A stretch of DNA of 32,000 bases from an uncultured bacterium (GTDB lineage Bacteria; Auribacterota; JACPWU01). The notes beneath the pieces are model-generated. The model searched no databases. It worked only from the letters and a program-made list of their open reading frames with translations, and had not been told where the DNA came from. Numbering within the stretch: position 1 is the first letter of the stretch; every line of letters starts with the position of its first letter. The stretch is taken from NCBI GenBank assembly GCA_964640155.1, contig CAZXEQ010000001.1:1-32000 (forward strand), in the 5' to 3' direction. A program made the position numbers and the translations under genes. This document shows positions 1 to 17,600 of the stretch, piece after piece.

Positions 1-138
1 ACTCTTGCAGTATCAGAAGGAACATCTGGTCTCACCGGTACATCTGGAGAAATTACTACATCCCCCATAGGAACATCAGGAGTAACTGCATCCACTCTTG
101 CAGTATCAGAAGGAACATCTGGTCTCACCGGTACATCT
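1..138 (-). repeat. 93-bp (31-codon) in-frame tandem repeat inside PD linker c
   Basis: Positions 1-45 and 94-138 are identical (actcttgcagtatcagaaggaacatctggtctcaccggtacatct), encoding PDVPVRPDVPSDTAR twice. The array may continue beyond the left edge. Confidence 0.85.
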
Positions 139-323
139 ACAGATGGCATTCCCCTATCATCTACAGGTAAAATATCCGGAATTTTAGGCGTGTCTAAAGG
201 AACAGGCACATCATCTGATGGCATTCCAGTCTCTGTTATATCGGGAAGAACTACAGCTTTGTCAGCAACTCCCGAGGAATCATCAGCACTTGCATCCGCA
301 TCCTGGTGATAATCACCATAAAA
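1..323 (-). repeat. Asp/Pro-rich low-complexity linker (PD linker c), running off the left edge
   Basis: The sequence is FYGDYHQDADASADDSSGVADKAVVLPDITETGMPSDDVPVPLDTPKIPDILPVDDRGMPSVDVPVRPDVPSDTARVDAVTPDVPMGDVVISPDVPVRPDVPSDTAR. Confidence 0.8.
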
Positions 324-3300: not shown

Positions 3301-6300
3301 ACGATTGCCCCGCCTACTCCAGCTGGTGTAAAATAGCTGTTTGAAAAATATGTTGGCATACGAAGACCACTGACTGTTTGTCCTTCAAGTCTTAGAGCTA
3401 CAGTTACAGGAATAAGCTCAGGAGCAGGAGGTGCAACATCTACTCTTGTATCTTGTGGAACATCCACCCTAACTTCTGGACCTCTATCAGTTGCAACATC
3501 TAATGCTGCATCTGGTGGCACTGGAACATCTGGTGATCTTAAAGCATCTATCGGTGTTGCTACATCCGGTGAATATGAATCCATGCTCGTTGTATCAGTG
3601 AAAACTCCTGCATCAGTAGTAGTGGCATCTATAGCTGCTACATCAGAAACTGGCGCATCAACACCTTCATCAACTGTAGGTATGTCACCACTCACGACCT
3701 CTATCGGAGCAGAGGCATCGACAACGGAAATATCTGCTGGGGGCATAGCATCTGGGATTGCTGGCATATCAACTGGCAGGCGTACATCTGATGCCGATTG
3801 ATCTACAAAAGCATCAGAAACTCCTGCGTCCGGAGTTTGCGTACGAACATGACATAAGCTCATTAAATCAAAGGAAAAACGACCTGAATCAAGAACATTT
3901 TGCGCAGGAATTTGAATTTGTATGGTTCTAAACTGCCCACTTCCTCCAGAATCTCTCACCATTCCCATGGAAAGCTCCTGAGTCCACACTCCTTCCGTCA
4001 AAGGTAAAGTCGTAGAATGATAATATCTAGAATCTCCTTTAGAACGTCTCTCAAAATCCTCTAACGCTAAAAATAAATCTCTCAGCCCAGTCTGACGAAA
4101 ACGGATATTCATTTGATCGCCCGGTAGACTTCTAGCATCCATAGGCATATCTCCCATGGAAATCGTTATATAAACTCCCGCTCCGGAAGAAATTCCCGCA
4201 TCTTGCGAAACTGGCATTTGTCCTTCTACGCGATAATGATCACCTTCTGAAATAAGTCTAGCTCTTGCACCTCCTAGCGTGGTAATTCTCACACTTGTAC
4301 CAGGAAAATAAGTAGCCGGAGTCTCTTGCCTTCTAGAAGTTTGTCCAGTTAGAGGTGATGTTCCTCTAATAGGAATAGGAGGTGGTCCATCAGTAACTTC
4401 TTCTAATCCAGAATCGGAAACTGCAGCCTCGGCATCCACACCAGTTTCTGCAGCAACACCTTCCTCACGCAAAGGCCCAAAACATCCCACAAAAGTCAAA
4501 GTAGCTGCAATCAATAACGCCATAGCTCCTTTAGTCCTTGGAGATATTGAAGTCACTGCAGAAACAGAAACTCCTGTAATCTGACTTAATGCTCTAAATA
4601 CTTCTGCCTTCCTTGACTCTACTCCTCTTACTCTTTCTCTCTCTTGCTCATTAATGCTCTGCGAGGTCTGTATGAATCTCATCACTGCTTTAAATTGTTC
4701 GTCCAACGATCTTTCACTGTTCTCTACTAACAACTTTACAAATCCTTCTTCTGATCCCATCTCTTCTATAAAGATTCTTCTCTCTTCTTCTGTCTTTCTA
4801 CTGAAATCATCTAGACTCCATAATATCGGTAATACTTCCCCATATGTCCCATGATCTATTGCTTCGTGTCCCATGACACTGGCTAATACGCTATTTGAAT
4901 AGGGTCGCCCTGTTCTCTTATTATTTCTCAGTAAGTCATCATCTATCCCTATATATCCCGGATTAATGACTCGCGCTATCGTGTCTCCATCCGAATATAT
5001 TCCTATTCCTGTCTCTACATTCCTCATCCCGGGGTATTTTGCTATTACTGCTTCCCACGCTTCCCCTAATCTCTCTTCTTGGAAACCTGTGTATTTTCCT
5101 TCACTGATTCTACCCATTCCTGTTGGCTCTGATTGATAACCTACTTCTCCTATTTCTTTCTTCCCTGTACGTATCGGGGTGGGGCCTAAGCCTGTTAAAT
5201 CTATTTCAAATCTTCCTCCTCCGGCTGGGTTTATATCAGAAGGTCTGACTTGATATTGTATTACTTGATACATTCTGTCTGAGCCCGCTGCCATTAATGT
5301 ACTTGTCGCTATGCTTGAATTCCATGTTCCACTTCCAAATGTTCCAGGTCTAAATACATACACTCCTCTACTGTCTTGGAAAACAACACTAAATCCATTT
5401 AATAGGGTAGGTACAAATTGGAAGTTGATCGCTGATAATCCTGTGGCATCTATGGGAGTTGCTCTATATACACTTAAATATGCTACTGCTGTCGAGGTTC
5501 CTAAAGGAACCATTCCAGAAAATCTGTATGCTCTACCCCCTATTGACGTAACACTTGCTGTTGCTCCGTCTAATCCTCCAGCAACCAAATATGCCCCTGA
5601 AAAAAAAGTCGGTGATGTAGCTGTTCCTGATGTCGTACTCCCACTTATACTCCTTGCTCCTGCAACGCTGATCAATGCCGGTGCTATGGGTGGTATAGCC
5701 AAAGCATCTATCTGTAAAGCAACACTTACAGTTGGACTTGTCCCACTTGTGACTTGATCTCCTCCCACTTGAACTTCAATCTGAGCTATATTTGAGGCGC
5801 TAAATCCAGAGGGTAAACTTGAAACTAATATTTCCCCACGACCAAACATACCAGGGGTTACCGTCACAGGAGCAACTCCCGTAACAATTCGTCCAGAACC
5901 ATCTTGTAATTGATAGGTTACTCTTGCAACATTGGTAACATTACCAATACCAATATGAAGTTGACCAGTCACCGCTGTGCCTGTTGTAAAATTTCTTGCT
6001 GCACCCGCTGGAATCCTATAAACCGTAATCATTTTGGATCCGGCCATTCCTCGAGTCACTGTTCCACTTGCATTCCATACAAGTCTTGATGTAGTAACAC
6101 CCGATACGGATGAAGCTGATCTTGATAAGGGTGCTGTACTCCAAGAACCTATTCCTGAGCCCCCTCCGTATCCAACTGTTTCTACAGTCACACCCGGTCT
6201 AAAATCAATTGGACCATCTACAACATTCGTAACGGGAAAGGTAGGTGAAGCTAAAGGTAAATCTGCGACAGTCAATGCCTTGGGTCCACTCAATGCTACT

Positions 6301-9300
6301 TCTACTAGCCCACTTCCATCTGGGATGTGTCGTCCCTCTATGACTCTGATAAGTCTAAATGTATTGGCATTGATTAGGGCAGGTACTTCAGATGCTGGCC
6401 TTCCCATCGCTGCTGCAAGTCGATTGATTAATTCCATTCGGTCTACTACAGGCACTCCCCACATCGTTGCTCGGCCATTTGTTACTTCTACAGTCGCTTG
6501 ATAGGTCGCTCCTCCAACCACTAACTCTGCCTTTAATGTATATCCATTTAGATTTCCTCGTGTGTCCCTTAATCCCGAGCTCCATGTGCTGTCACTTAAA
6601 AATGCCGTCTTTCCTGCTGCGCTGAGTTCACTTGAGAAGCCTGCAAATGCTCCTCCACTGACTCCCGTGTATCTGAGTCTCCTTGTGTACATCACTGTTC
6701 CATGTGCTTCTCTATCTGTGACAACATTCTCTGCTACGGTTACAACTCCCATTGTTCCAAATGCACTCTCCGTTGTGACTCCATAAAAGTCTTCTGTTCC
6801 ATCTGCACTTGCTGTCACTCGTAATGGATTGCTTGCGTTAAAGTCTGTGATGGTTAATGCCTTGGGTCCACTCAATGCTACTTCTACTGTCCCACTTCCA
6901 TCTGTGATGTGTCTTCCCTCTATAACTCTAATAAGTCTAAATGTATTGGCATTGATTAATGCAGGCACTTCAGCTGGTGTTCTTCCCATCGCGGCTGCGA
7001 GTCGGTTTATTAATTCCATTCGGTCTACTACCGGTACTCCCCACATCGTTGCTCTTCCATTTGTTACTTCTACTGTCGCTTGATACGTCGCTGTCCCTAT
7101 CACTAATTCTGCCTTTAACGTATATCCATTCAGATTTCCACGTGTGTCTCTTAACCCCGATGTCCATGTGCTGTCTGCTAAAAACGCTGTCTTTCCTGCT
7201 GCGTTGAGTTCACTTGAAAAGCCTGCAAATGCTCCTCCCATGACTCCCGTGTATCTTAATCTTCGGGTGTACATCACAGGTCCATGTGCCTCTCGATCTG
7301 TGACTACATTCTCTGCGACTGTTACAACTCCCGTTGTCCCAAATGCACTCTCGGTCGTGACTCCATAAAAGTCTTCTGTTCCATCTGCACTTGCTGTCAC
7401 TCGTAATGGATTGCTTGCATTAAAATCTGTGATGGTTAGTCTCTTCGCTCCTATTAAGGCCACTCTCACTTCTGTTCCACTAGTTAATTGGCTTCCAGCT
7501 ACTTTCCTCTGAAGCCTAAACACTCCAATTCGTATCATCCCTTCTAATGTTGTTCGATCTACTCCCGTTGCCAAAGCCAATCTTTGCAGTAACATATTTC
7601 TATCAACTGGCGCAAAACCTACAGCATTCATTCCTACTCTTCTTGGAATATCTATCTGAGCTTGTCTTGTACGTAATACTCCCATAGCATCGCGATATTC
7701 TAATTCAGCCTGTAACGTATATCCTCTTAAGTTTCCCGTTAAATCATTAATTCCTGAGACCCAAGTTGAGTCTGCCAAAAATGCTGTTTTACCTGCATCA
7801 TCCAACTCTTCACTATAACCAAATGACAATCCACCCGTAACTCCTGTCGCAACAAGCCGTCTTACGTATTGTTCACCACTACTCATCACGCCTTCAGCTC
7901 TCGCATCAATGACTGAATCTGTGACTGTCACTGCACTTGAAGAAAACACACCTGAGGTTCTTACTCCATAATAATCTATTTCTCCACTAGCGCTTTCCAT
8001 ACCTCGAAGTGTATTGCTTGCATAAAAATCTGAAATAGTTAGACGTTTAGGTCCGCTCATTCCAACATCTACAATATCGCTGCCATCTGTAATATGACGT
8101 CCTTCAATCACTCTCATGAGTCTGAAAGGATTATTTCTAATTAAACCCTCTACTTCTGAAACAGATCTTCCCATTCTTGCAGCAAGTTGAGTAATTAATT
8201 CCATCCGATTCACGACGGGCACTCCCCACATCGTCCCTCTCATATTAGAAACTTCAACATCTGCTTGATACTTCATACCGCCAATCTCTAATTCAGCTCT
8301 CAATGTATATCCACTGAGATTCCCTCGTCTATCCTTTAACCCTGATGTCCACTGTGCATCTGATAAAAATGCTGCCTTACCTTCAGCATTTAATTCAGTT
8401 AAAAATGCAGCATATCTATTTCTTGATACTCCTGAATATCGTACTTGCCTTGTATACATTTCTGTTCCATGAGGATCTCGATCTGTAACAATATTTTCCT
8501 CTACTGTTACCAAAGGTCGTCCAGTTGAAACATCCACTGTTCCAAAAGCATTTTCTGACTCTACACCATAAAAATCATCTACACCGTCCGCACTTGCATT
8601 CACTCGGATAGTTGTATCCACCATTAATTTTGACATATAGACCACACCATGAGCGCTGGACCCTCCAGCTGATTCCGCAACAGCACCAATATTTCTCACA
8701 TCTTCCCACCGTACAGGTGATTGTCCTGAAGGAACAGGGAAAACCCGTCTTAAATCTTCTTCACGAATTTCAATTCTATTTGAACTATTGGGAGTTGTGT
8801 TAGCTTGCAGTTCTATTCTGAATTTTCCAATTCTTCCATCTCTTAATGTAATCTGAAAATAAATTATCTGAGCTGTATCTGTTTTAACATACCGACGAAG
8901 AACACCTCCTGAAGCGGTGACGGCCCTTCTAATATTTTGAGCAGTCATTTCTGCAGTTCCCTCAAGAGATTGTCCTACCGCAGCGTATTCTCCACCATTC
9001 AAAGTCCAATCCCACTGAATACTTGCGCCATCTGCTACACGTATCGGTTCTGCGTTTGCATCAATATTGGTAACGACAACATCAGAGCTGGATGTCCGCG
9101 TTGGATTTCCAAGGCCAGCAATCTGGGTTGGTGCAGGACCCGTTCCATTATCTTGTTGAACAGTTAAAGAAACAACATTTGCAGTTTGTGTAGATTTAAT
9201 TCCTACTACTCTCATTCGTCCTCTTCTAGCGCGAAAAGAAGGATGATTACTGGGTTCTTCTAAAGTCAATTCAGAAGCAGCTGTTACAAGGTCTCGTCCA

Positions 9301-12300
9301 CGCTCATCCACTAACTGATTTCTTGGAAGACGCACTCGGTACCACGAGTTAGGACGTAACCCTCGCATTAGAAAATGTTTTGTGGTTGTTTGACCAGAAG
9401 CATCAAAACGCGCATTAAAATTGACTCTCATATTGACAGGTTCGCTGCTTCCAGGGGTCATAACTTCTCCACGTGCATTGAGAACTTCATTAATGCCTTC
9501 CAAAAACACCCAGAACACAACGTCATTACCTGTTACCATAAGATCATTTGAAATATTGCGTCCCGCAGCGTTTACTGCCGTAAAAGGGAAAGCCATAACC
9601 GCATATTCTGGCATGTTTTGAGTATTACCATTACGATCTAAATCCCATGTATACCCAATAGCTCTCTCACCAGATCTACGTCCTTCTACAGGAGTTGGTG
9701 ATACCACACTCAATACAAGGCCACTTCCTCCTGTCGCAGAAGTTGCTGAAAGCGCATTCGTCACAAAAGTTGGCATGCCTTCTGCGGTTTGAGTAACTTC
9801 AGCATCTACGGCTAATAAAGAAGGCGGAACACCACATGCCTCCATCAAGATTGCTCCCGCAAGACCTATAGGGGCTGCAACAGATTTAAGCAACATACCT
9901 AAAGCAAAAATGACTGAAATAAATCGACTTCCAAGAAGACCGGAATAATGACGAATCGTTGCAACTCTTTCTCTTAACCTGCGTTCATAGTTAATTGAGG
10001 CACTTGGTCTTCTTGGTTCAAGACCTTTATCTTGTAGTCTTTGAATTAAACGGAAAAAAGTTTGTTCTGTAACTTCCCCTCGCTGACCTCTCACACGAAC
10101 GTCAGATTTATCTTTAAAAGAAACAATAACTTCATAATCATTTCTGTTCGCAGCAGGAATAAATTGAATTTGGTCAATCGTTCGATAAAACTCAGGATAT
10201 TCGTTCCTTAATACTTGATGAAGTCGAGACAACCTGGCTTCTTCATCCAAAAATAGTGGTGGAGCTTGTCCTACAAAAACACTCAACTCTTGTAATAATT
10301 GAGTCCGTGCGGCGTCTCCTAAGTTTAAACCTTTGTCTTCTAGAGCCTCTAAGATAACTCCCCAAAATTGACTGGTAATTAAACCCCCTTCTCTATCCAC
10401 TCCAAGATTTTTAAACACTGTTGTTCCATCAGAAAGACGAATTTGGACGACCCCAACTTCATTCGAACCTGCTCTTACACCATCAGGAAATAAACCATAG
10501 TTTGTAATACGCAAATAAAAAGCAGGATCATTTGCTCGAATGCTGTCTATCACTCTCTGAAGCGCAACAATAACATCATCCCCTTTTTGACCTTGAGATA
10601 AACCAGCTCCAGCCACAGAAGATGAAGATCTAGAGAAAAAATAATCATCAGCAACTACCCTTTCTAAATTAGATCTTTGACGATGTGCAGCTTCATTTTC
10701 CTGCCTTCTATGTTCTCTAGCAAAGTGAATGAACCCTGCGAATAAACCAATGCTCGCCAAAACTATTACAATAATGGCTGCCCATCGACTTGTTCCAGAA
10801 GGCGGACGTATGGATTGAGCAATTAAAGATTTTAACTCTCTTACTCTTTGAGCGAGTTTTCTTTCATAAAGTTCTTCATTTTTATTTATATCTTCCGGTG
10901 TTTTTGTGGGGCCAAAACGAACGTGTTTTACAAGTTCATCTAACTGACGATCCATACCATCTTGTGTCATGCGTCTAGCTTCAACTTCTATTCTTAATCT
11001 TGCTTTTTCTGCTTCATAATCTTTCACCGACCCCACTGCAATAGCACCTAATTTCAATTGCTTACCTTCGCTATTGGGTGCCGTAGCCTGAATCAAAGCC
11101 CATTCAAACTTGACCACAGGAACATAAATCGTTTTTCCATTTCTGAAATAGGTTTGTACCTTAACGCTGACAATAGGATCAATCTTGCTTTTGGCTTGAG
11201 CAGCCTTTTGAGCTAACTCTTCTTGAACCTCTTTCGTTTTTCCTTCTCTACGCAGCTTAAGAAGTTTTTGAACATCGTCCTCACTTAAACCTACGTATCT
11301 AGCGATGGCAGGAATATCTTGAAAAAAAGTATTCGTATTCATCCAAGGCACAGTTGCAGAGTTCACATCTGATGGAAGTTGTGGATCTTCTACTCCTACT
11401 AATGTCCCATTTTGTGCTAAAAGAGATCCACCTTTTTGACCTTCAGGTCGAGAAGCAACCTCCATGACAGACTCAACACCATGCTCTTTATTCATCTCCA
11501 CAAAAATCCCTAACATCACCCAAAAATCTTCGTCAATATTCGAAACAGCATTATCCACATTCATAACATAAACAAATTTTCTATCCTGTTCAAGAAGGTC
11601 TAGCAAAGTACCACTACGAACAAGATCTGCAATCCAGTCAAAATGATTCTGAACATAAGTAATAGGTTTGCCTTCCGGATCTCTTGCTGTTTCAGCAGGA
11701 TGGGCATTTGCATAAGCTAAAATTTGTTCATATTGATCAATAGTGTCTTGAAGAGTTCGACGCCCATCATCGCTCAAAGATTCTCCACCTTCAAGTCGAG
11801 CACGTGCCTTTTTTGCATCTTTCGCATAAGAACTATTTTCAATATCTGCAACAGTTGGAACACCTGCTTGCGCACCTCCTTGAGTGAATAAGCGAAGTTC
11901 TTCTGGACTCCATCCAAAATTTCCATGACGAGCTAAATAATCTCTCGCAGGTTCATCGGTATTCGGTCCAGTCATTAAAAGAGGAAGAAGACCACTGTCT
12001 CTCTCTCCCATCACTTGCATCAAAAACAGTTCAAGAAAGGTATAGGCTCTTCCATCAATGACAATAGCTGGCACTTGAGCTTTTGCAATAATTTTAGAAA
12101 GGTCTTCACGGTCTGTTTCAGGAAGAGCATCAAAAAGGGGTTTAAAACGCGGATCCGCACGCATGGCCTGTACTTTCATACGTGAAGCATCTCCACCAAC
12201 CATCATGGCTGCTACAGCCTCTTTGGAATGAGCACGACCCAGAGCTTCATAGCGTGCACGATCTTCTGAAGATAATGTGCGAATATCTTTAATAAGAGAA

Positions 12301-14492
12301 TGCTCTTGAACAGGCTGAACTCGCTCAACTTTTTTAGTTTTAAGCTTTCCGCGAAGATAGGCCTCATAGGCTGGATCTCTACCTTCTTGTCCAGTAGCTG
12401 GAGCATTTTTTTGAGCATCAAATTCAGCTGCAGCCACCAAACGACTCGAAAGAGCTTCTAATGTTAATGGTTCACCATCTTTTGCTTGAACGATCAATCC
12501 TCTTCGTTCACCATTAACAATAATTTCAACAAAATATCTTCCCCCTATTAGCTCAGGCTTGTGCACTTCAATTTGAGATTCTGCTTTACTTATCACACTA
12601 GCGATAGTTTTACTTAATTTTTCTTTCCATAGAGCCAAAAGTCTTTGCCAATCCTTATTAGATGTCACAGAAAGAAATTGGAGAACCACAATATCTAAAA
12701 GAGATGCGGCTTCAAGAGACTCTAGTTTTCTAGCAATAAGTTCTGCATCTGCACCAGCATCTCTTACCACTCCTGGATCTTGCCCCATACTTAGAGGAGC
12801 AACAACACTATGCGTCTTGGAAGAAACATCCTTTGTATGTTTTACATCTGTATTCCTAGTAACTGGGGGCTGATAACTAGGGGCTGATGCATGCGTCACT
12901 ATTTCCTTTAAAAGCACATTTTCTAATTCGCTTCTCTCATCTTCCATGATGCTGCGATAAGGAGTTTTAACTTTCAGATCTGTGACTTTGGGAGTGACGA
13001 TGACATAAGAGATGCCTTGTTGTTTAAGCTTTTCAGCCATGCCTTCGGTGTGAAAGCCTCCGGCGAGCAAAACTGTGGTTTGTGATTTATGGTTCAATGT
13101 GTTTTTCACCATCACTTCATCACGTTTTTCAGCCACTTCATAAAATTTCTTTAATTGAGCAATATCTTTAGAAACTTTATCTAATGTTTCTAAGCCATTC
13201 GCATCAATTTTATATTTTTTAGCTAAAGCTTGAATGCTTTCGTGAATCTTTTTCCCATCAACTTGCTTTTTACCTTCCTGATAAAGATTCCAATCGACGC
13301 GTCTCAATTCTAAACGATAGAAAGTCTCAATAAATTCTATTTTTTCTTGCAACTGATGGATTTCTTTTTCTTCCTGAGTCTTTTCTAAACTTTCACGAAC
13401 TCTTGATTCCCATTGTCCAATTTCTTTCAAAAGCTGATCTTTGGCTATCGCATCAAATAATTTAACATACGAGATGTAATTTTTAAAATTCTTCTCTGTG
13501 TTAATGTTTTCTTTCTTCTCTTCTATTTTGCTTGAGAGATAAGCATAAAATTGTGCGGGTTCAATTTTTTCTAAGCGCAAATACAAACTTTGCGTCAAAA
13601 ATTCGGCACGTTCTTCTTTAGACATTTTTGGAAGCAAGCGCTCCATGACTTTGGCTTGCTCTTTTTGGATTTGATTAAAATCTATAACTTTTGAGATCTT
13701 TTCAGCTTGAATGTATTGACCGATATTTTTCAAATCATCTGTATTGATTTTTTTTACTTTGCTTTGCTTTTGCAAATATTCCAAATATTCGGCTAATCCC
13801 TTTCCCCCTTTTTCATAGTCTTCACGGAATTTTGAGTATTCTTTTAACTCTAAGTTAAAAACTTTTTCTCTTAATTCTTTTAAGACTTTTTCAGCTTTCT
13901 CAAACATTCCTTCAGATTGGTCTCTTAAATTTAAAGACTTGTCATACCAGTGCACATTCTGTAAATACAATCCCATCTCTTCTGCACCTTGAATATTTAA
14001 TGGCTGATCTTTCACGATCGATAAGTATTCGGCACCATTGATTTTTCCTTTTCTCATGTAATACAGGGCTAATTCTTTTTTCATCGCTGGATCAGGGAAG
14101 GAAGTCAAAAGAGACGTATCAACATTTCCGCTGGCACCTTCGACATTGACCACTTTAAGACCATGTCCTTCATGTTTCTTGAACAAATCTTCTAAAATTC
14201 TGGCTTCATTGGATTGAGCTTCAAAGTGACAGTGCATATCTTGAAGTTGAATAACAATGGGATTTCCTGCCTTACCTTGAAATTTTGATTGGATTTGACC
14301 AAATTTGGCTGGGATTTTGATGTCTTTAACACTTAGCGGAGTCTGATCTTGTGCGTTTTTAGACACACTTTTAGACTGAATTGGGTCTATTTCTAAGCCT
14401 TGAACAGGTAAACTAGTGATTAAAAAGGTAAATGCTGTAAGAAATGAGATGAATTTTCTCAAAGGTTTATTCTTGAAAGTTGACTGCCCCAT
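1..14492 (-). CDS. Second giant ORF, 3'-partial (4,830 codons inside the window), missing from the ORF track; exported or membrane multi-domain protein with UDPGP-like region, 4 tandem repeats and at least 3 beta-domain + HExxH modules
   Basis: Reverse-complement reading from ATG at 14492 (cat at 14490-14492 on +) gives MGQSTFKNKPLRKFISFLTAFTFLITSLPVQGLEIDPIQSK... There is an in-frame TAA upstream at 14520-14522 and no other start codon between. I translated this frame (minus codons starting at positions with p mod 3 = 2) by hand down to position 3 and met no stop. I made exact codon-by-codon checks at 1-60, 11340-11603, 12180-12218, 14341-14492 and at every motif listed below. The four minus-strand ORFs the track lists here (2665..3057, 6388..6585, 6970..7167, 12212..12421) are all in other frames. 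A stop-closed ORF in this frame would have been listed, so its absence fits an ORF running off the left edge without a stop. Confidence 0.8.
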   Translation of the reverse strand, partial: MGQSTFKNKPLRKFISFLTAFTFLITSLPVQGLEIDPIQSKSVSKNAQDQTPLSVKDIKIPAKFGQIQSKFQGKAGNPIVIQLQDMHCHFEAQSNEARILEDLFKKHEGHGLKVVNVEGASGNVDTSLLTSFPDPAMKKELALYYMRKGKINGAEYLSIVKDQPLNIQGAEEMGLYLQNVHWYDKSLNLRDQSEGMFEKAEKVLKELREKVFNLELKEYSKFREDYEKGGKGLAEYLEYLQKQSKVKKINTDDLKNIGQYIQAEKISKVIDFNQIQKEQAKVMERLLPKMSKEERAEFLTQSLYLRLEKIEPAQFYAYLSSKIEEKKENINTEKNFKNYISYVKLFDAIAKDQLLKEIGQWESRVRESLEKTQEEKEIHQLQEKIEFIETFYRLELRRVDWNLYQEGKKQVDGKKIHESIQALAKKYKIDANGLETLDKVSKDIAQLKKFYEVAEKRDEVMVKNTLNHKSQTTVLLAGGFHTEGMAEKLKQQGISYVIVTPKVTDLKVKTPYRSIMEDERSELENVLLKEIVTHASAPSYQPPVTRNTDVKHTKDVSSKTHSVVAPLSMGQDPGVVRDAGADAELIARKLESLEAASLLDIVVLQFLSVTSNKDWQRLLALWKEKLSKTIASVISKAESQIEVHKPELIGGRYFVEIIVNGERRGLIVQAKDGEPLTLEALSSRLVAAAEFDAQKNAPATGQEGRDPAYEAYLRGKLKTKKVERVQPVQEHSLIKDIRTLSSEDRARYEALGRAHSKEAVAAMMVGGDASRMKVQAMRADPRFKPLFDALPETDREDLSKIIAKAQVPAIVIDGRAYTFLELFLMQVMGERDSGLLPLLMTGPNTDEPARDYLARHGNFGWSPEELRLFTQGGAQAGVPTVADIENSSYAKDAKKARARLEGGESLSDDGRRTLQDTIDQYEQILAYANAHPAETARDPEGKPITYVQNHFDWIADLVRSGTLLDLLEQDRKFVYVMNVDNAVSNIDEDFWVMLGIFVEMNKEHGVESVMEVASRPEGQKGGSLLAQNGTLVGVEDPQLPSDVNSATVPWMNTNTFFQDIPAIARYVGLSEDDVQKLLKLRREGKTKEVQEELAQKAAQAKSKIDPIVSVKVQTYFRNGKTIYVPVVKFEWALIQATAPNSEGKQLKLGAIAVGSVKDYEAEKARLRIEVEARRMTQDGMDRQLDELVKHVRFGPTKTPEDINKNEELYERKLAQRVRELKSLIAQSIRPPSGTSRWAAIIVIVLASIGLFAGFIHFAREHRRQENEAAHRQRSNLERVVADDYFFSRSSSSVAGAGLSQGQKGDDVIVALQRVIDSIRANDPAFYLRITNYGLFPDGVRAGSNEVGVVQIRLSDGTTVFKNLGVDREGGLITSQFWGVILEALEDKGLNLGDAARTQLLQELSVFVGQAPPLFLDEEARLSRLHQVLRNEYPEFYRTIDQIQFIPAANRNDYEVIVSFKDKSDVRVRGQRGEVTEQTFFRLIQRLQDKGLEPRRPSASINYERRLRERVATIRHYSGLLGSRFISVIFALGMLLKSVAAPIGLAGAILMEACGVPPSLLAVDAEVTQTAEGMPTFVTNALSATSATGGSGLVLSVVSPTPVEGRRSGERAIGYTWDLDRNGNTQNMPEYAVMAFPFTAVNAAGRNISNDLMVTGNDVVFWVFLEGINEVLNARGEVMTPGSSEPVNMRVNFNARFDASGQTTTKHFLMRGLRPNSWYRVRLPRNQLVDERGRDLVTAASELTLEEPSNHPSFRARRGRMRVVGIKSTQTANVVSLTVQQDNGTGPAPTQIAGLGNPTRTSSSDVVVTNIDANAEPIRVADGASIQWDWTLNGGEYAAVGQSLEGTAEMTAQNIRRAVTASGGVLRRYVKTDTAQIIYFQITLRDGRIGKFRIELQANTTPNSSNRIEIREEDLRRVFPVPSGQSPVRWEDVRNIGAVAESAGGSSAHGVVYMSKLMVDTTIRVNASADGVDDFYGVESENAFGTVDVSTGRPLVTVEENIVTDRDPHGTEMYTRQVRYSGVSRNRYAAFLTELNAEGKAAFLSDAQWTSGLKDRRGNLSGYTLRAELEIGGMKYQADVEVSNMRGTMWGVPVVNRMELITQLAARMGRSVSEVEGLIRNNPFRLMRVIEGRHITDGSDIVDVGMSGPKRLTISDFYASNTLRGMESASGEIDYYGVRTSGVFSSSAVTVTDSVIDARAEGVMSSGEQYVRRLVATGVTGGLSFGYSEELDDAGKTAFLADSTWVSGINDLTGNLRGYTLQAELEYRDAMGVLRTRQAQIDIPRRVGMNAVGFAPVDRNMLLQRLALATGVDRTTLEGMIRIGVFRLQRKVAGSQLTSGTEVRVALIGAKRLTITDFNASNPLRVTASADGTEDFYGVTTESAFGTTGVVTVAENVVTDREAHGPVMYTRRLRYTGVMGGAFAGFSSELNAAGKTAFLADSTWTSGLRDTRGNLNGYTLKAELVIGTATYQATVEVTNGRATMWGVPVVDRMELINRLAAAMGRTPAEVPALINANTFRLIRVIEGRHITDGSGTVEVALSGPKALTITDFNASNPLRVTASADGTEDFYGVTTESAFGTMGVVTVAENVVTDREAHGTVMYTRRLRYTGVSGGAFAGFSSELSAAGKTAFLSDSTWSSGLRDTRGNLNGYTLKAELVVGGATYQATVEVTNGRATMWGVPVVDRMELINRLAAAMGRPASEVPALINANTFRLIRVIEGRHIPDGSGLVEVALSGPKALTVADLPLASPTFPVTNVVDGPIDFRPGVTVETVGYGGGSGIGSWSTAPLSRSASSVSGVTTSRLVWNASGTVTRGMAGSKMITVYRIPAGAARNFTTGTAVTGQLHIGIGNVTNVARVTYQLQDGSGRIVTGVAPVTVTPGMFGRGEILVSSLPSGFSASNIAQIEVQVGGDQVTSGTSPTVSVALQIDALAIPPIAPALISVAGARSISGSTTSGTATSPTFFSGAYLVAGGLDGATASVTSIGGRAYRFSGMVPLGTSTAVAYLSVYRATPIDATGLSAINFQFVPTLLNGFSVVFQDSRGVYVFRPGTFGSGTWNSSIATSTLMAAGSDRMYQVIQYQVRPSDINPAGGGRFEIDLTGLGPTPIRTGKKEIGEVGYQSEPTGMGRISEGKYTGFQEERLGEAWEAVIAKYPGMRNVETGIGIYSDGDTIARVINPGYIGIDDDLLRNNKRTGRPYSNSVLASVMGHEAIDHGTYGEVLPILWSLDDFSRKTEEERRIFIEEMGSEEGFVKLLVENSERSLDEQFKAVMRFIQTSQSINEQERERVRGVESRKAEVFRALSQITGVSVSAVTSISPRTKGAMALLIAATLTFVGCFGPLREEGVAAETGVDAEAAVSDSGLEEVTDGPPPIPIRGTSPLTGQTSRRQETPATYFPGTSVRITTLGGARARLISEGDHYRVEGQMPVSQDAGISSGAGVYITISMGDMPMDARSLPGDQMNIRFRQTGLRDLFLALEDFERRSKGDSRYYHSTTLPLTEGVWTQELSMGMVRDSGGSGQFRTIQIQIPAQNVLDSGRFSFDLMSLCHVRTQTPDAGVSDAFVDQSASDVRLPVDMPAIPDAMPPADISVVDASAPIEVVSGDIPTVDEGVDAPVSDVAAIDATTTDAGVFTDTTSMDSYSPDVATPIDALRSPDVPVPPDAALDVATDRGPEVRVDVPQDTRVDVAPPAPELIPVTVALRLEGQTVSGLRMPTYFSNSYFTPAGVGGAIVRTSRWIGPNTYRFEGTVVVGDGNSVAYLSALSPTGMDATGLTGDVMNVRFYATFVDSFRAFLRDNRGQVGLFIPGVFGSGAWNFLLYGTNPTTVMGSGWRTAGLSGRFQVIQIQISGADVNPSGGGRFELDINGLVSGGPTPIRTGKIKVGAGYQSEPTGMGRIREGKYTGFQEGRLGAAWAEVIEKYPGMRNVDTGIGIYSDGDTIARVINLGYIGIDDDLLKDNRRTGRPYSNSVIASVMGHEAIDHGTYGEVLPILWSLDDFRRKTAEEKRVFVEEMGEEEGFVKLLVENSERSLDEQFEAVMRFIEASQSINDQERERVRGVESRKEEVFRALSQITGGQAVSAPNLVIDIVAKNLRRPVSQASIGGTWLTLLIGGIGNFFKQISTFKKGSPFKGLQEGLNELQNRLTKTIFKIGRPNLFWRTLGGVSNRVMGVVAILAVFIGVSCGLSHPTAVPRADAGADVTDAAVDVVLPTDVLDAGSPDATPDIISPDMPFPVDRGPDARPDVGIDVPMDARPEDVPVSMDVPRPDADVTPMDIPRVDMPSPDAGPDVVRMDASIDVRDVEDVPPTEVGVDASGEDVPDVMPPAPLLISVAGARSVSGSTRSGPAPSPTFFPGTYLSVGGLDGATASVTSIGGRAYRFSGNVPLGTSTAVAYLSVYRATPIDATGLSAINFQFVPTLLNGFSVVFQDSRGVYIFRPGTFGSGTWNSSIATSTLMAAGSDRMYQVIQYQVRPSDINPAGGGRFEIDLTGLGPTPIRTGKKEIGEVGYQSEPTGMGRISEGKYTGFQEERLGEAWEAVIAKYPGMRNVETGIGIYSDGDTIARVINPGYIGIDDDLLRNNKRTGRPYSNSVLASVMGHEAIDHGTYGEVLPILWSLDDFRRKTEEERRIFIEEMGGEEGFVKLLVENSDRSLDEQFKAVMRFIQTSQSINAQERERVRGVESRKEEVFRALSQITGVSVSEMTSIAPRTKGAMALLIAATLTFVGCFYGDYHQDADASADDSSGVADKAVVLPDITETGMPSDDVPVPLDTPKIPDILPVDDRGMPSVDVPVRPDVPSDTARVDAVTPDVPMGDVVISPDVPVRPDVPSDTAR
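324..365 (-). other. Internal lipoprotein-signal-peptide look-alike L3 (M4710 to C4723)
   Basis: RTKGA-MALLIAATLTFVG-C-FYGDYHQDADASADD has the same peptide as L1. It is again followed by an acidic/Pro-rich linker. Confidence 0.5.
693..710 (-). other. HExxH motif (HEAIDH, ORF A aa 4595-4600) of module M3
   Basis: The codon string is the same as in M1 (cac gaa gca ata gat cat). Confidence 0.55.
1521..1949 (-). repeat. Asp/Pro-rich low-complexity linker (PD linker b, 143 aa)
   Basis: The sequence is GLSHPTAVPRADAGADVTDAAVDVVLPTDVLDAGSPDATPDIISPDMPFPVDRGPDARPDVGIDVPMDARPEDVPVSMDVPRPDADVTPMDIPRVDMPSPDAGPDVVRMDASIDVRDVEDVPPTEVGVDASGEDVPDVMPPAP. Confidence 0.8.
1950..1994 (-). other. Internal lipoprotein-signal-peptide look-alike L2 (M4167 to C4181)
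   Basis: The sequence is GGVSNRV-MGVVAILAVFIGVS-C-GLSHP, with an uncharged core and an I-G-V-S-C tail. A weaker hydrophobic stretch, TWLTLLIGGIGNFF, lies upstream at about 2143-2190. Confidence 0.45.
2265..3424 (-). repeat. Module copy M2 (diverged): J domain about 2886-3424, HEAIDH zincin-like domain about 2265-2885
   Basis: The zincin part is visibly similar to M1 and M3 at nucleotide level (compare 2356..2556 with 496..696 and 4654..4854 in the track). The offsets are 2,298 and 1,860 bp, both multiples of 3. The J part is conserved mainly at protein level. Confidence 0.8.
2553..2570 (-). other. HExxH motif (HEAIDH, ORF A aa 3975-3980) of module M2
   Basis: cat gaa gca ata gat cat, in the context NSVIASVMGHEAIDHGTYGEVLPILWSLDDFRRKTAEEKR. 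Confidence 0.55.
3425..3838 (-). repeat. Asp/Pro/Val/Ala-rich low-complexity linker (PD linker a)
   Basis: The sequence is TQTPDAGVSDAFVDQSASDVRLPVDMPAIPDAMPPADISVVDASAPIEVVSGDIPTVDEGVDAPVSDVAAIDATTTDAGVF...SPDVPVPPDAALDVATDRGPEVRVDVPQDTRVDVAPPAP. Confidence 0.8.
3842..4365 (-). other. Orphan beta jelly-roll-like domain J0 (homologous to the J domains of M1-M3 but with no zincin partner)
   Basis: J0 reads TYFPGTSVRITTLGGARARLISEGDHYRVEGQ...GDQMNIRFRQTGLRDLFLALEDF...GQFRTIQIQIPAQNVLDSGRFSFDLMSL. The M2 J domain reads TYFSNSYFTPAG...YRFEGT...VMNVRFYATFVDSFRAFLRDN...GRFQVIQIQISGADVNPSGGGRFELDINGL. The two align over these pieces. Confidence 0.4.
4482..4523 (-). other. Internal lipoprotein-signal-peptide look-alike L1 (M3324 to C3337)
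   Basis: The sequence is SPRTKGA-MALLIAATLTFVG-C-FGP. It has a basic n-region, an uncharged hydrophobic core and a T-F-V-G-C tail that fits the lipobox pattern. It is followed by an acidic/Pro-rich tether. Confidence 0.5.
4851..4868 (-). other. HExxH motif (HEAIDH, ORF A aa 3209-3214) of module M1
   Basis: cac gaa gca ata gat cat, read from + gtg/ttc/tgc/tat/atc/atg triplets. The context is NSVLASVMGHEAIDHGTYGEVLPILWSLDDFSRKTEEERR, with acidic residues 20-28 aa downstream as a possible third ligand. Confidence 0.55.
5685..6250 (-). other. Gly/Thr/Val-rich beta-type (Ig-like?) spacer domain of ORF A
   Basis: The sequence is VDGPIDFRPGVTVETVGYGGGSGIGSW...KMITVYRIPAGAARNFTTGTAVTGQLHIGIGNVTNVARVTYQLQDGSGRIVTGVAPVTVTPG...IAQIEVQVGGDQVTSGTSPTVSVALQ. 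It alternates hydrophobic and polar residues. I did not recognise a family. Confidence 0.3.
6251..8597 (-). repeat. Four in-frame tandem repeats of an unassigned 194-201-aa domain (R1 8597-7998, R2 7997-7395, R3 7394-6813, R4 6812-about 6251)
   Basis: R3 and R4 are offset by exactly 582 bp. The track's shadow ORFs 6562..6786 and 7144..7368 show the same offset. The shared protein pattern is ASADGTEDFYGV..TDREAHG.VMYTRRLRYTGV..AGKTAFL.DSTW.SGLRDTRGNLNGYTLKAEL..YQATVEVTNGRATMWGVPVVDRMELINRLAAAMGR..FRLIRVIEGRHI.DGSG.VEVALSGPKALTI.DFNASNPLRVT. R1 and R2 are clearly homologous but diverged, with lengths of 200 and 201 aa. Confidence 0.9.
9837..9923 (-). other. Second hydrophobic/TM segment of ORF A (about aa 1524-1552)
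   Basis: The sequence is GSR-FISVIFALGMLLKSVAAPIGLAGAILMEACG-VPP. It is preceded by the basic stretch RRLRERVATIRHYSGLLGSR. Confidence 0.55.
10008..10575 (-). repeat. Weak internal duplication (two units of about 75-85 aa) between the two TM helices of ORF A
   Basis: Unit a (about 10320-10575): DPAFYLRITNYGLFPDG..VGVVQIRLSDGTTVF..REGGLITSQFWGVILEALEDKGLNLG. Unit b (about 10008-10232): YPEFYRTIDQIQFIPAA..YEVIVSFKDKSDVRV..QRGEVTEQTFFRLIQRLQDKGLEP. Shared pattern: FY-R-I, beta-like V-V, Q-F---L--L-DKGL. Confidence 0.35.
10716..10784 (-). other. Transmembrane helix (ORF A aa 1237-1259)
   Basis: The sequence is SGTSR-WAAIIVIVLASIGLFAGFIHF-AREHRRQE. It has 23 uncharged hydrophobic residues flanked by basic residues. 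Confidence 0.6.
11090..12275 (-). other. UDPGP-family (UTP-glucose/GlcNAc-1-phosphate uridylyltransferase-like) domain inside ORF A, about aa 740-1135
   Basis: Four motifs occur in the family order:
- AVAAMMVGGDASRMK (12180-12218), compare the glycine loop GGxGT[SR][ML]G
- AIVIDGRAYTFLELFLMQV
- FVYVMNVDNAVSNIDEDFW (11520-11576), compare NxDNLG
- VMEVASRPEGQKGGSLL (11418-11468), compare EVTxKxxxDxKGGTL
A fifth piece, VPWMNTNTFF (11322-11351), compares with FNTNNxW. The codon-by-codon translation of 11340-11603 was verified. Confidence 0.5.
13044..14249 (-). other. Possible Tiki/TraB/ChaN-like motif pair (very tentative)
   Basis: The N-terminal motif IQLQDMHCHFEAQSNEARILEDL has H87 and H89 at 14226-14234. 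The distal motif TTVLLAGGFHTEGMAEKLKQQGISYVIV has H481 at 13050-13052. This recalls the GxxH...Q and GxGH...G motif pair of that superfamily. The spacing (about 390 aa) is longer than I would expect. Confidence 0.2.
14397..14492 (-). other. N-terminal signal peptide or signal anchor of ORF A
   Basis: MGQSTFKNKPLRKFISFLTAFTFLITSLPVQG/LEIDP has a basic n-region (K,K,R,K) and an uncharged hydrophobic core of about 18 residues. Small residues precede a possible cleavage point. Confidence 0.6.
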
Positions 14493-14500
14493 GTTTATAA

Positions 14501-14506
14501 CCTCTT
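14501..14506 (-). promoter_or_regulatory. Shine-Dalgarno sequence of the 14492 ORF
   Basis: The minus strand reads AAAAGAGGTTATAAAC-ATG. AAGAGG (cctctt on +) lies 8 nt upstream of the ATG. Confidence 0.6.
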
Positions 14507-14560
14507 TTATTTGAATAAGTTATATCATCATCAGCCACTAAAAAAGCTTTTAACATACAT

Positions 14561-14588
14561 AATATACCACATCAAGGCTGAAATGCAA
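14561..14588 (-). promoter_or_regulatory. Candidate sigma70-type promoter in the 113-bp spacer (TTGCAT - 16 nt - TGgTATATT extended -10)
   Basis: The minus strand reads TTGCAT TTCAGCCTTGATGTGG TATATT. The -35-like hexamer is at 14583-14588, the -10-like hexamer at 14561-14566, and a TG lies one base upstream of the -10. This is sequence resemblance only. Confidence 0.3.
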
Positions 14589-14605
14589 GTTTGAGACGCT
14601 TTTTT

Positions 14606-17600
14606 TTAAGCTGCAGTTCCTATCCACGCTTCTCTTCTTATCTCACCATCCATATCGCTTCGATCTGAAACAAGATTTAAGCTACTCTTCCTATATATAC
14701 CCAACCGTAAGACATCCCCCTCTTTTACAACTTTAACCACGCTACCATCTTCAAGTCGAGCAATATCCACTCCCTTTTCCAAATCAGCAATCGACCTTGT
14801 AAGAATCATTTCCAGAGCAACTTCAAAATACTGAACAGAAATATTTCCGGCTCCAACAAAATCAATATAGAAACAATGAGATATTTGACGAAGATCTTTA
14901 ACTATTTCAGCCACATCTGAACTTAATTTCAAAGTTTTACCTGCAACCTGAATCTTCCCATTCTTTTGAAGCAATATAATGCGAGATATTGTCTTTCTCA
15001 CAAGTTGATGAAGCGGTTTTGATATCTTAGCATCTTGATTCATTCCTTCCAAAATAGTCAATCCATCTTGCGTACGCCCAGATTTCAAATTTTTAATAGC
15101 TTCGAAATAGGGATCGATTGATACTAACCCGCTTGTCTGTAATTCTCTTGCCGGATGAACTTCATCAAAATAAGAAATGAGTTCAACCAAAGGCATGTTT
15201 CCCATTAATCCATCAACTGTTTCATCCACTCCAAAAATGATTTGTGCTAAATCTTCAGAGCTAAAAGATTTCCCTCTCATAAAAGAAGCCATTTGAAGCA
15301 GTCCGCCTAAAACACCTTGTTCCATTGCAAGTGTTGCTTCCTCATTGTGGTGATATTCTTCTGAGCGAGCTCTTTTTCGTCTTTTTTCCTCTGCCGCTCT
15401 TACTTCAACAATCTTTCTCACTTTTTCACGTAAATCATTTAATGTCATCTCATCTGATTGAAGAGATTTAATGGTTTTTTGAATCAAATCCGCAAGAGTG
15501 CGATTATCTTCCAATCCCAATTCATCTCTATTTAAAAAATGTGCAATGCTTGTTTGCAAAAGATCCGCAATTTCATTTTCAGTAATTTCCTGTAAAAACT
15601 CTGGGACAGCTTTAACAATGCTGCTCACTAATTTTTGAGTTTGATTCTGTCTCTGTGCTTGAGCCAAACGTAATCCCAAGATATAGCGTCTAAATCTCTT
15701 AAAATTAGCCAATCTGACTCTTTCTTTAGCTACACCTCTAACATTCGAAGGGTAAAGTTCACCAACATATTCAGAGATTGTTGGTCTTCCCTTTGATATT
15801 TCTTCAGAATCAGTAGCTAGAAATTGAATCCAAACAAAATAAGTTCCCGAAGCAAAACGAGGATGTTTGCCAGTGATGTGATCAGAAAAATAAGCGTCAA
15901 TCTTAGTCTTCAAAGCTGCATTTATAAGAACCACTTCTTTCTGATATTCCACATCTCTTTTAATTTGAGTCACTTCTTCTTCCTTCTTATCATCGAAAGA
16001 GTCTGCTTTATTTGTATGGCCCAATTCATGAAAAAGTCGTTCACCCAAAAGATGAATCACCACATCATGATAAGTACTATCATCCTCAAGTAGTTGACGA
16101 ACAAAAGCTTCCTGTAAATAAATGACTGTTTGACCTTTTTCAACAGTACGTAAAGAATTCACAGGAATATTATTTGAAACTTTAATCACCACATTTTGAT
16201 TTTCAGCTCGTGAAATGACGTCATTCCAATAACTTTCTAAAGAAGTCCCCTTCACTCTTTCCTGAACATTCTTTAAAGCTTGTTCAATGAGTAAAGCATA
16301 ATGTGCTCGTCCTCTATTATCGGGAACAGCATTCCATGCAGTTTTTGAACGATTCAAAGTAACTCTATCAAAAACAACTTCTTCTATTCTTTGAGGCCAT
16401 TCGAAATTAGTTTCAGAAAAAGTTAGAAAAAGAGCTGAATACTCTGCCTCATAAATGGATATTATTTCTCCTAGTGGTTTAAGATCATCATTATAAGTGT
16501 CTTTCCCCTTTTCACCGAGACGATTAAGCTCTGCTTCAAGTTTGTCGTACTCAGCACGAAGTGCTGGTAAAATAGCCTCAACACTTTCAGACTCGCTAAG
16601 CTGTTCCACCCGAGCCCTTAAAACTTCAATGTCTCCACTTATTGCATCTAAACTTCTTATAGGAGTTTCTGCAGCAGAAGACATGTCTGCAGGCGTAGCA
16701 GCTTCTGAAGCTGGTTCATCGTCGTCTTCCAGATCAGCTGAAGTTAAGTCTGCTGGTTCAGCTGCTTCAGGTTCTGGAGGAGGAGAATCTCTTCTTTCCG
16801 GTGCGGCGGGTTCTTCAGGCAGTGGTTTATCTGTTATGTTGATAGCAGCATCCCTGACAACAGGTGTAGCAGGAGCTGGTCTTTCTGCAGAGAGAGCTTG
16901 AGGCGTTGGCACTGGTTCAGGGGATTCAGGTTCAGGGCTCAACTCTTTAAGACGTTTTCTAAAAAGTTCTCGACGATTTTGAATCTCTTCTAAACCTTCT
17001 CGAATGGCTCGTTGTAAATCTTGAACTCTCGTTTGACCACTCCAATCAGAAAAAATATCTCTTAAAGCATCCCTTGCTCCTGTAAAAAGCTCTTCAGCTT
17101 TAGCCAATGATCCAAAAGACTCTGTAATGTCATCCTCTGATGCATCTTCAGGCTTTACAAGATATAAAAGAATTTTTTGAGCAGCATCAACCGGTTCAAC
17201 AACATTCTTTTTAAACAAAGCTTCTTGTGCATCTTCTGGGGTTGGAGAAGATCTTGGAGTTGCTTCTGTTTGAGTTTCTGTTTTTGCCCCACCCAAATCC
17301 GCTCCTGTGACAGTTTCTACTGAAGCTCCAACTCCTGATATTGAAACATCTCCTAAAGGAGCTTTAGGTTCCGCGGGTGCCTCAGGTTCTGAAGCAGGTT
17401 TAACTTTTGCAAGACGAGCCTCCCACCTTGATCGAAGGTCCTTGATAACACCAAATCTTGCTTGAATAATAGCCCTTGCACTTTCAGCCCAAGCCCTATC
17501 AACCAATTTCATTTGTTCACCTTCATGCTGAACATCAGCAAAAACAGCTAAAACATCTTTACCTTCTGGAATTGCCTCTAACGCTGTTTCTAAATGAGCT

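Follow-up and report, generated by a model that had tools for sequence, protein, structure and literature searches.

A UDP-sugar pyrophosphorylase-family domain that follows the signal-peptide-like N-terminus of a giant protein

Two giant genes and an embedded enzyme domain

We analysed a stretch of 32,000 nucleotides (hereafter the window) from an uncultured bacterium of the Auribacterota lineage (contig CAZXEQ010000001.1 of assembly GCA_964640155.1, positions 1 to 32,000), which is occupied by two giant genes lying head-to-tail on the minus strand, open reading frame (ORF) B and then ORF A (Table 1). The product of ORF A, of which at least 4,830 amino acids (aa) are visible before its 3' end passes beyond the window edge, carries a UDP-sugar pyrophosphorylase (UDPGP family) domain and reads, in order, as a signal-like segment, a conserved N-terminal module (N-module), a linker, the enzyme, a first transmembrane helix (TM1), a loop of about 265 residues (aa 1258-1523), a second transmembrane helix (TM2) and more than 3,200 residues of repeats. 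A first-pass annotation of this DNA, made from the letters alone, had proposed a UDPGP-like domain within a giant protein of more than 4,830 residues behind a signal sequence, and these elements are all upheld by a PF01704 match, an AlphaFold2 model, structural comparison with Foldseek, a profile alignment to the Arabidopsis thaliana UDP-glucose pyrophosphorylase (UGPase) 1z90 and a heuristic scan of the N-terminus. PF01704 is the sole significant Pfam family in the visible part of ORF A, and a scan of ORF A with NCBIfam yielded nothing beyond the Pfam result.

The stretch encodes a full UDPGP-family catalytic domain. PF01704 matches ORF A over aa 932-1075 (E=2.4e-10) with a score of 40.1 bits, the gathering cut-off being 22, so that the significant hit by which the proposal could be checked is present, and phmmer finds direct matches among UGPases of the PDB with E-values down to 5.6e-5. 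A profile built from 50 family sequences, the window domain included, aligns to residues 24-376 of the 469 of 1z90 at E=1.9e-58 and matches 32 UDPGP sequences of the PDB. Prediction of the domain from its single sequence was uninformative (AlphaFold confidence score pLDDT 38), and an AlphaFold2 run on the 50-sequence alignment was used instead, giving a model with pLDDT 94.3 and a predicted TM-score (pTM) of 0.91. When this model was compared with the PDB by Foldseek, all of the top 50 hits were UDP-GlcNAc or UDP-Glc pyrophosphorylases, aligned over about 450 columns with E-values from 3.4e-19 to 2e-15 and TM-scores of 0.44-0.53. The five motifs on which the proposal had rested occur in the order given, in one stop-free minus-strand frame (aa 763-1057). 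The interval assigned to them, 11090-12275, does correspond to aa 740-1134 as had been said; the domain itself is longer, its iterated hidden Markov model (HMM) envelope spanning aa 724-1220.

The profile alignment ends at residue 376 of 1z90, leaving the C-terminal beta-helix domain of UGPases without a counterpart, and in the AlphaFold2 model the RFGPTK strand is followed by helices alone, which run into TM1. Within the UDPGP family the domain falls in a bacterial clade of its own, in which the C-terminal beta-helix of the eukaryote-type UGPases is missing. At the level of enzyme identity this is an ordinary result, as related Omnitrophota proteins are already named UGPases by NCBI. The domain organisation is non-canonical: the enzyme is embedded in a larger protein, is devoid of the beta-helix, follows a signal-like N-terminus and adjoins a transmembrane helix.

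A search of genome contigs returned one related locus, from a Candidatus Auribacterota metagenome-assembled genome (JAYRIK010000164, hereafter L001), while a scan of metagenome contigs returned zero relatives of the locus. L001 keeps the B-then-A order, with 85% identity for A and 73% for B. Between the two A genes the ratio of non-synonymous to synonymous substitution rates (dN/dS) is 0.15 in the enzyme, 0.07 in the N-module, 0.28 in the linker and 0.04 in the first 35 codons, and stays within 0.04-0.36 along the first 1,520 residues. These values and the collinear orthologue therefore establish that the A region is coding and under purifying selection, and no accident of assembly. That ORF A might nevertheless be an assembly chimera, or a string of separately translated units with the enzyme unattached to the signal and the downstream modules, is a reading to which we give very little credence. 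Three DNA repeats in the C-terminal part, 92-96% identical, could mislead an assembler, and internal lipoprotein-signal-like segments (MALLIAATLTFVGC, two copies) each have AAAGGAG 2 nucleotides (nt) before an ATG; yet more than 5 kb separates the enzyme from these downstream repeats, a 2-nt Shine-Dalgarno spacing is too short for normal initiation, no stop codon interrupts the 14.5 kb (the frame is free of stops from 14519 to 3), and an independent Auribacterota genome has signal, N-module, enzyme, TM1 and loop collinear and in frame at 85% identity, with dN/dS well below 1. The same spacing led us not to adopt internal translation starts at the lipobox-like segments. An alternative genetic code or gene fusion behind the giant ORF was likewise rejected, since the 14.5 kb contain no stop of any kind and the orthologue is collinear.

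The B-A intergenic region of L001 (L001 6955-7727, equivalent to window 14493-14605) is about 660 nt longer than that of the window. It contains a small ORF of the GIY-YIG type (MSQWKWYVYIIECLDGTYYTGCT...), on whose flanks a repeat with the pattern TTCTCGAC...CTCGAACA...GAGCGAGT.CAACGAGTCGAGAAG occurs in several copies; the arrangement looks like a mobile insertion absent from the window. A scan of the B-A intergenic region for sigma-70 promoters and terminators found neither.

Table 1. Features of the window (all on the minus strand) and of carrier genes in a related Omnitrophota locus; residue numbers refer to protein A unless stated otherwise.
Feature	Residues	Nucleotide positions	Strand	Remarks
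ORF B, upstream giant gene	5,780 aa	14606..31948	-	starts at TTG; frame open to 31999 at the window edge
ORF A, giant gene carrying the enzyme domain	at least 4,830 aa	3..14492	-	ATG at 14492, AGAGG 8 nt upstream
Signal-peptide-like N-terminus	1-32	14397..14492	-	sequence and heuristic scan
Conserved N-module	56-528	12909..14327	-	recurs in relatives
Linker	529-723	12324..12908	-	no transmembrane helix; top hydrophobic stretch Kyte-Doolittle 1.5, includes Asp
UDPGP-family (UDP-sugar pyrophosphorylase) catalytic domain	724-1220	10833..12323	-	iterated HMM envelope
MMVGGDASRM	763-772		-	first-pass motif
Nucleotide-binding loop VGGDASRM	765-772	12177..12200	-	G767 and R771 family-invariant; aligns with LNGGLGTTMG of A. 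thaliana UGPase
TFLELFLMQ	818-826		-	first-pass motif
VQNHFD	947-952	11637..11654	-	H950 invariant; aligns with His of PPGHGD
VMNVDNAVSNID	976-987		-	first-pass motif
NVDN	978-981	11550..11561	-	N978 and D980 invariant, N981 nearly; aligns with NSDN of UGPases
MEVASRPEGQKGGSLL	1010-1025		-	first-pass motif
QKGGSLL, KGG sugar-side loop	1019-1025	11418..11438	-	G1021 invariant
WMNTNTFF	1050-1057		-	first-pass motif
RFGPTK	1192-1197	10902..10919	-	R1192, F1193 and K1197 at least 90% conserved; aligns with RFLPVK of A. thaliana UGPase
Kept family columns	G767, R771, K804, Q871, H950, N978, D980, N981, E1011, G1021/1022, E1035, N1052, K1111, E1130, R1192, K1197			invariant or near-invariant in the family
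TM1 (WAAIIVIVLASIGLFAGFIHF)	1237-1257	10722..10784	-	Kyte-Doolittle 2.6-2.8; 16 residues past the domain end
TM2	1524-1544	9861..9923	-	Arg-rich RRLRERVATIRHYSGLLGSR before it (6 Arg); only acidic residues after it
DNA repeats of the three C-terminal modules		413-712, 2273-2572, 4571-4870	-
Lipoprotein-signal-like module ends, MALLIAATLTFVGC		4482-4523 and 324-365	-	followed by a Pro/Asp/Val-rich linker
Lipoprotein-signal-like module end, VMGVVAILAVFIGVSC		1950-1997	-	followed by a Pro/Asp/Val-rich linker
Second-architecture genes		L002 (Omnitrophota GCA_015233195.1) 152-2485, 10001-17833, 17913-23600, 23593-27273
Second-architecture proteins	P0005, P0008, P0012, P0023, P0057, P0063, P0111

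Catalytic residues and predicted activity

All columns that are invariant or near-invariant among the 50 family members are kept in the window domain (Table 1), so the residues of the active site and of the nucleotide-binding loop, whose loss would have spoken against an enzyme, are in place. The loop departs from the L-x-G-G-x-G-T-x-M pattern in that its third Gly is replaced by Ala and its Thr by Ser. The invariant K804, within AKAQVP, aligns with the PK of LNGGLGTTMGCTGPK in 1z90, the conserved Q871 with its FNQS, and both Gly residues flanking H950 are replaced (QNHFD). On the sugar side, K1020-G1021-G1022, E1035 and N1052 are present and align with the KGG loop, the Glu and the FNTNN Asn of 1z90, which we take from UGPase structures to be the sugar-side residues. 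The KGG motif named in the first-pass annotation does exist here; the catalytic lysine is not that of KGG, the alignment pointing instead to K1197, whose codon (window 10902-10904) falls outside the interval that had been assigned to the domain. In USP, UGP and UAP, the UDP-sugar, UDP-glucose and UDP-GlcNAc pyrophosphorylases, a conserved lysine at the phosphates takes the place of a second Mg2+ (PMC12584669), and by alignment the phosphate-contacting lysine of the window domain would be K1197 of the RFxPxK motif rather than the KGG lysine.

The module is complete and most likely catalytically active, judging by residue conservation and a dN/dS of 0.15, and a degenerate domain is unlikely because of that same value against the Auribacterota orthologue. 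It would catalyse the reaction NTP + sugar-1-phosphate <-> NDP-sugar + PPi (nucleoside triphosphate to nucleoside diphosphate sugar and pyrophosphate) and stands nearest, by sequence, to UDP-glucose pyrophosphorylases. Our best guess for the substrate is one of the UDP-glucose type, because UGPases score far above UAP or USP with the 50-sequence profile (E-values of 1e-58 for UGPase, 1e-39 to 1e-28 for UAP and 1e-8 for USP). Catalysis by the window domain itself is thus put forward as a prediction from conserved residues.

A different possibility is that the UDPGP fold has been repurposed as a non-catalytic module that binds a nucleotide sugar, sugar phosphate or glycan on an exported giant surface protein, as the first-pass annotation had suggested among its options. 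The predicted extracytoplasmic position of the domain would suit such a role, as would some local departures from the consensus of the clade (GHGE to NHFD, AGASSRM to GGDASRM and ETNMWQST to KFEWALIQAT), but the Gly and Arg of the nucleotide-binding loop, the His, the NxDN motif, the KGG loop, the RFxPxK Lys and every other invariant or near-invariant residue of the family are retained, dN/dS stands at 0.15, and the pathway-partner enzymes found next to the domain in its relatives (see below) make sense only beside a catalytic domain. We regard repurposing as improbable.

Relatives, topology and the side of the membrane

When 1.84 billion representative proteins were searched exhaustively, 110 matches emerged, the best of which are UDPGP domains within proteins of 1,000-6,100 aa and not stand-alone enzymes. 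Some of these proteins hold tandem copies (three in P0004, two in P0005 and two in P0006), and the partner domains include phosphoglucomutase (PGM/PMM) domains I-IV in P0008, P0011 and P0030, a GHMP kinase in P0012, a nucleoside-diphosphate kinase (NDK) in P0004 and a response-regulator receiver (REC) in P0005. The named members are from Candidatus Omnitrophota and bear the NCBI name UTP--glucose-1-phosphate uridylyltransferase. Signal peptides were judged here and in protein A by a simple home-made heuristic (a positively charged n-region, an h-region of 7-17 residues and small residues at -3/-1), by which signal-peptide-like N-termini occur in 35 of the 52 members that are 600 aa or longer, 26 of them with a -3/-1 site, compared with 2 of the 48 shorter members; in most long members no transmembrane helix lies between the signal-like segment and the enzyme. 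Single-domain proteins of 515-527 aa consisting of a signal peptide and a UDPGP domain also exist, and a homologue search started from a consensus-like clade member returned mostly short forms; started from the family profile, this search gave no matches. As far as sequence can tell, the clade, in Omnitrophota as in the Auribacterota-like genome studied here, is habitually built into long proteins led by predicted Sec signals, together with other sugar-activation enzymes. The statement that such enzymes are stand-alone cytosolic proteins accordingly holds for the characterised enzymes and fails for the nearest relatives of the window domain, most of which sit inside long signal-led proteins.

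One of the single-domain forms, P0141 (515 aa), comes from a contig, L003 (positions 8001-9548 and 1-1061), on which genes for an ATP/ADP translocase of the TLC type (PF03219) and for an 858-aa protein with a lipase domain are also found, which hints at an energy-parasitic, host-associated organism. A second carrier architecture was observed in the Omnitrophota locus L002 and in further proteins (Table 1): a signal peptide and a conserved leader (..LP.PG.MV..S..F.P..I.GI...P.NPL.FDF) precede the cargo, and a conserved C-terminal module (GGIDL...PLP...NI.GF.PVIINITP...LP.LLG) follows it. The cargo enzymes are of cytoplasmic type and differ greatly from one another: PGM with UDPGP, UDPGP with REC, a Glu/Leu/Phe/Val dehydrogenase, and UDPGP with GHMP kinase. 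Enzymes of ordinary build in the L002 locus have neither leader nor C-terminal module. This second architecture has the look of a system that sorts or displays enzymes as cargo.

The N-terminal signal-like segment and the transmembrane helix at aa 1237 are both as the first-pass annotation had described them. The former has an n-region with K7, K9, R12 and K13, a 17-residue h-region (FISFLTAFTFLITSL) and a P-V-Q-G stretch that fits the -3/-1 rule, with predicted cleavage at VQG|LE, and it is 97% identical in the L001 orthologue. The N-module that follows is marked by invariant QDxH...Q, EG, E, E, R and GGFH elements and is found in P0001-P0003 and in 15 UDPGP-bearing representatives. A protein search with aa 1-1300 gave three matches, all on the N-module, and the N-module homologue P0001 carries an NAD-dependent epimerase/dehydratase. 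Matches of the N-module to PF04187 (ChaN/Tiki) are weak and below cut-off (four of nine members, best E=0.021), and a sequence search of the PDB with it returned no match; it may be a domain resembling the Tiki/ChaN superfamily with a long helical insert.

Textbooks place UDP-sugar pyrophosphorylases in the cytosol, and the location of the one in protein A turns on how these N-terminal and transmembrane segments are read. The charge patterns of the n-region, TM1 and TM2 agree with one another, placing the N-terminus inside, aa 33-1236 with the enzyme outside, aa 1258-1523 inside and the part beyond TM2 outside; the loop between the two helices is predicted to be cytoplasmic, with the enzyme across TM1 from it, because six Arg precede TM2 and none follows. 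Our preferred reading, to which we give an even chance, is that the enzyme is exported and works outside. The signal peptide would translocate the module, which would stay attached to the cytoplasmic membrane at its outer face; there it would interconvert sugar-1-phosphates and nucleotide sugars within a sugar-nucleotide pathway that is extracytoplasmic or operates at cell contacts, as might also be the case for the related long proteins.

Several observations weigh against export. To our knowledge, neither UTP nor sugar-1-phosphates are to be expected in the bacterial periplasm, and the partner domains of the relatives (GHMP kinase, NDK, receiver, NAD-dependent epimerase, Glu dehydrogenase) are of cytoplasmic type. 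The flanks of TM1 are near balanced in Lys and Arg, with two before and four after in the window protein and four on either side in the orthologue, and across eight proteins (the window protein, the orthologue and six relatives) the first transmembrane helix after the enzyme has 17 Lys/Arg before it and 15 after it, with patterns opposed between proteins. In P0010 (aa 1934-1961) and P0029 (aa 1968-1992) the post-enzyme helix itself resembles a signal peptide, with several Lys/Arg, a hydrophobic core and AxA, and the enzyme would therefore sit inside; in both proteins this helix is at odds with the topology to be expected from their N-terminal signal peptides. Finally, the signal segment of protein A shares 34 of 35 residues with the orthologue, a degree of conservation unusual in a signal peptide that is cleaved.

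The same points favour an active enzyme on the cytoplasmic face, where the N-terminal segment would anchor or associate with the membrane without exporting the next 1,200 residues, TM1 would export the rest, and UDP-sugar would be made at the membrane from cytoplasmic UTP for glycan or glucan synthesis or export, its users being the rest of protein A, protein B or other envelope machinery. Such an arrangement, which we hold to be a serious possibility if short of an even chance, accounts for cytoplasmic substrates, for conserved catalytic residues under purifying selection, for relatives that fuse the domain to the ATP- or phosphorelay-dependent GHMP kinase, NDK and REC, for the N-in/C-out charge pattern of the post-enzyme helix in P0010 and P0029, and for an N-terminal segment more conserved than cleaved signals usually are; a 2026 preprint reads long proteins with sugar modules and transmembrane helices only in the same way (bioRxiv 10.64898/2026.06.07.730766). 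It requires, however, two violations: a canonical signal-like N-terminus that does not export, and a TM2 with its six Arg on the outer side. Moreover, the signal-like N-terminus with AxA-type sites is conserved in 35 of the 52 long relatives and is no accident, and with TM2 as the single further helix the repeat-rich C-terminal region with its Pro/Asp/Val linkers would fall in the cytoplasm. The conflict between inside and outside is a general one, beyond the reach of sequence analysis alone, and the location we favour on the outer face is accordingly an inferred one.

The remaining features of the locus lie on either side of this region. Within ORF A, aa 1960-2750 (window 6243-8615, minus strand) form four tandem repeats of about 195 aa with the pattern ...DFYGV...GKTAFL...GNL.GYTL.AEL..., of which three DNA copies (at 6259, 6841 and 8026) are 69-88% identical to a reference copy; a family scan of these repeats gave a sub-threshold RHH_1 match only. 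Further on, aa 2930-4830 (window 3-5705, minus strand) hold three near-identical modules, 92-96% identical at the DNA level over 300 nt, each with a beta-rich region and a domain bearing the HExxH-like HEAIDH (window 4851-4868, 2553-2570 and 693-710), for which neither Pfam nor a PDB sequence search gave a match. By charge, all signal-like segments at the module ends are N-in/C-out, an arrangement that a single polypeptide cannot satisfy. ORF B, separated from ORF A by 113 nt, encodes a polytopic protein with dense clusters of transmembrane helices at aa ~2391-2760 and ~4023-4260; Pfam and NCBIfam scans of it gave no match, and it could be a partner of A. On the plus strand the GC skew stays below zero across window 1-32000 (-0.12 to -0.31), the coding strand being G-rich in both giant genes, and GC content drops from ~0.44 to ~0.35 near the A/B junction.

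Overall, a fully conserved UDP-sugar pyrophosphorylase stands here behind an export-type signal and adjoins a membrane anchor, as it does in dozens of related long proteins, which also bear phosphoglucomutase, kinase and NDK modules. In its widest form, our proposal is that an intact pyrophosphorylase is translocated by the Sec system and tethered outside the inner membrane, that the PGM, sugar kinases and NDK of its relatives are exported likewise, and that together they serve an extracytoplasmic or cell-contact nucleotide-sugar pathway; we advance this tentatively and would on balance doubt it. Were it true, Auribacterota and Omnitrophota would make or break down nucleotide sugars outside the cytoplasm, with NTPs or UDP-sugars coming from a partner or prey cell or through a dedicated exporter, for which protein B would be a candidate. 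If the export signals work, nucleotide-sugar metabolism would take place outside the cytoplasm in these PVC-related and little-known bacteria, perhaps at a cell-cell interface, and the giant proteins and the lifestyles of their owners would have to be reread; if they do not export, signal-peptide and topology predictors systematically misread a whole class of giant proteins. The domain (aa 724-1225) offers a compact and well-modelled handle on this open topology problem, and the recurrent architecture around it is only partly described so far.

Comparison with known systems

The eukaryote-type UGPases (A. thaliana 1Z90/2ICY, human UGP2 4R7P and Leishmania major UGP 2OEF) have the same catalytic fold as the window domain, with Foldseek E-values near 1e-17, and share its ordered motifs: the nucleotide-binding loop, the Lys, the FNQ Gln, the GHG His, NxDN, KGG, the Glu, the FNTNN Asn and the RFxPVK Lys. 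The window domain is 13-18% identical to them, is devoid of the beta-helix oligomerisation domain and in comparison has several helical insertions, so that TM-scores reach just ~0.45-0.53. A canonical UGPase is moreover a stand-alone soluble protein of ~470-510 aa, whereas the window domain forms one part of a protein that has at least 4,830 aa. UAP1/AGX1 (1JV1, 8YP3, 6G9V) and USP (3OGZ, 8TG2) belong to the same superfamily and fold, 8YP3 being the best Foldseek hit (3.4e-19), and the conserved phosphate-side lysine is common to them and the window domain; their sequence profile scores are much weaker than those of UGPase, and the KGG loop of the window domain is UGPase-like.

Giant genes are documented in Omnitrophota (PMC10066038; bioRxiv 2023.11.21.568195), where the long proteins have been described as holding a 'sugar-metabolism module' of starch synthase, GT1, PGM, receiver and ROK kinase, 39% of them having a signal peptide and transmembrane helices, and where topology prediction sets the metabolic content on the periplasmic face, the same paradox as here (bioRxiv 10.64898/2026.06.07.730766). 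UDPGP or PF01704 is absent from both the 2023 (bioRxiv 2023.11.21.568195) and the 2026 (bioRxiv 10.64898/2026.06.07.730766) giant-gene papers. Among Omnitrophota long proteins, members of the UDPGP clade of the window domain are present in P0030, P0007 and P0023, and MBF0483451.1 (2,610 aa) is an example of an Omnitrophota protein that bears the NCBI uridylyltransferase name. Set against the module type of at least 10,000 aa from Omnitrophota, with signal peptide or transmembrane helices and several sugar-enzyme Pfam domains, the window protein has a signal-like N-terminus and transmembrane helices, at least 4,830 aa before the window edge cuts it off, and one recognised enzyme domain. The window protein further differs from the Omnitrophota long proteins in coming from an Auribacterota-like genome, its nearest genome being Auribacterota, and in its leader, a Tiki/ChaN-like N-module by tentative assignment, in place of their 'LPxPG...NPL' leader.

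A precedent for the outside placement that we favour comes from Chlamydia, of the same PVC superphylum, which secretes GlgA, GlgB, GlgX, GlgP and the phosphoglucomutase MrsA and uses host UDP-glucose outside the bacterium, in the inclusion lumen (PMC11046441). As would be the case for an exported window module, these are sugar-phosphate and nucleotide-sugar enzymes of cytoplasmic type found beyond the cell. The Chlamydia enzymes differ in that they reportedly leave by type III secretion and in being soluble proteins of ordinary size, and the pyrophosphorylase of the pathway, GlgC, is not secreted; furthermore, the window organism has no known host, and its phylum, Auribacterota, has been inferred to consist of free-living fermenters (PMC9324843). 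The Chlamydia case shows extracytoplasmic sugar-nucleotide metabolism to be possible where a host supplies the substrates.

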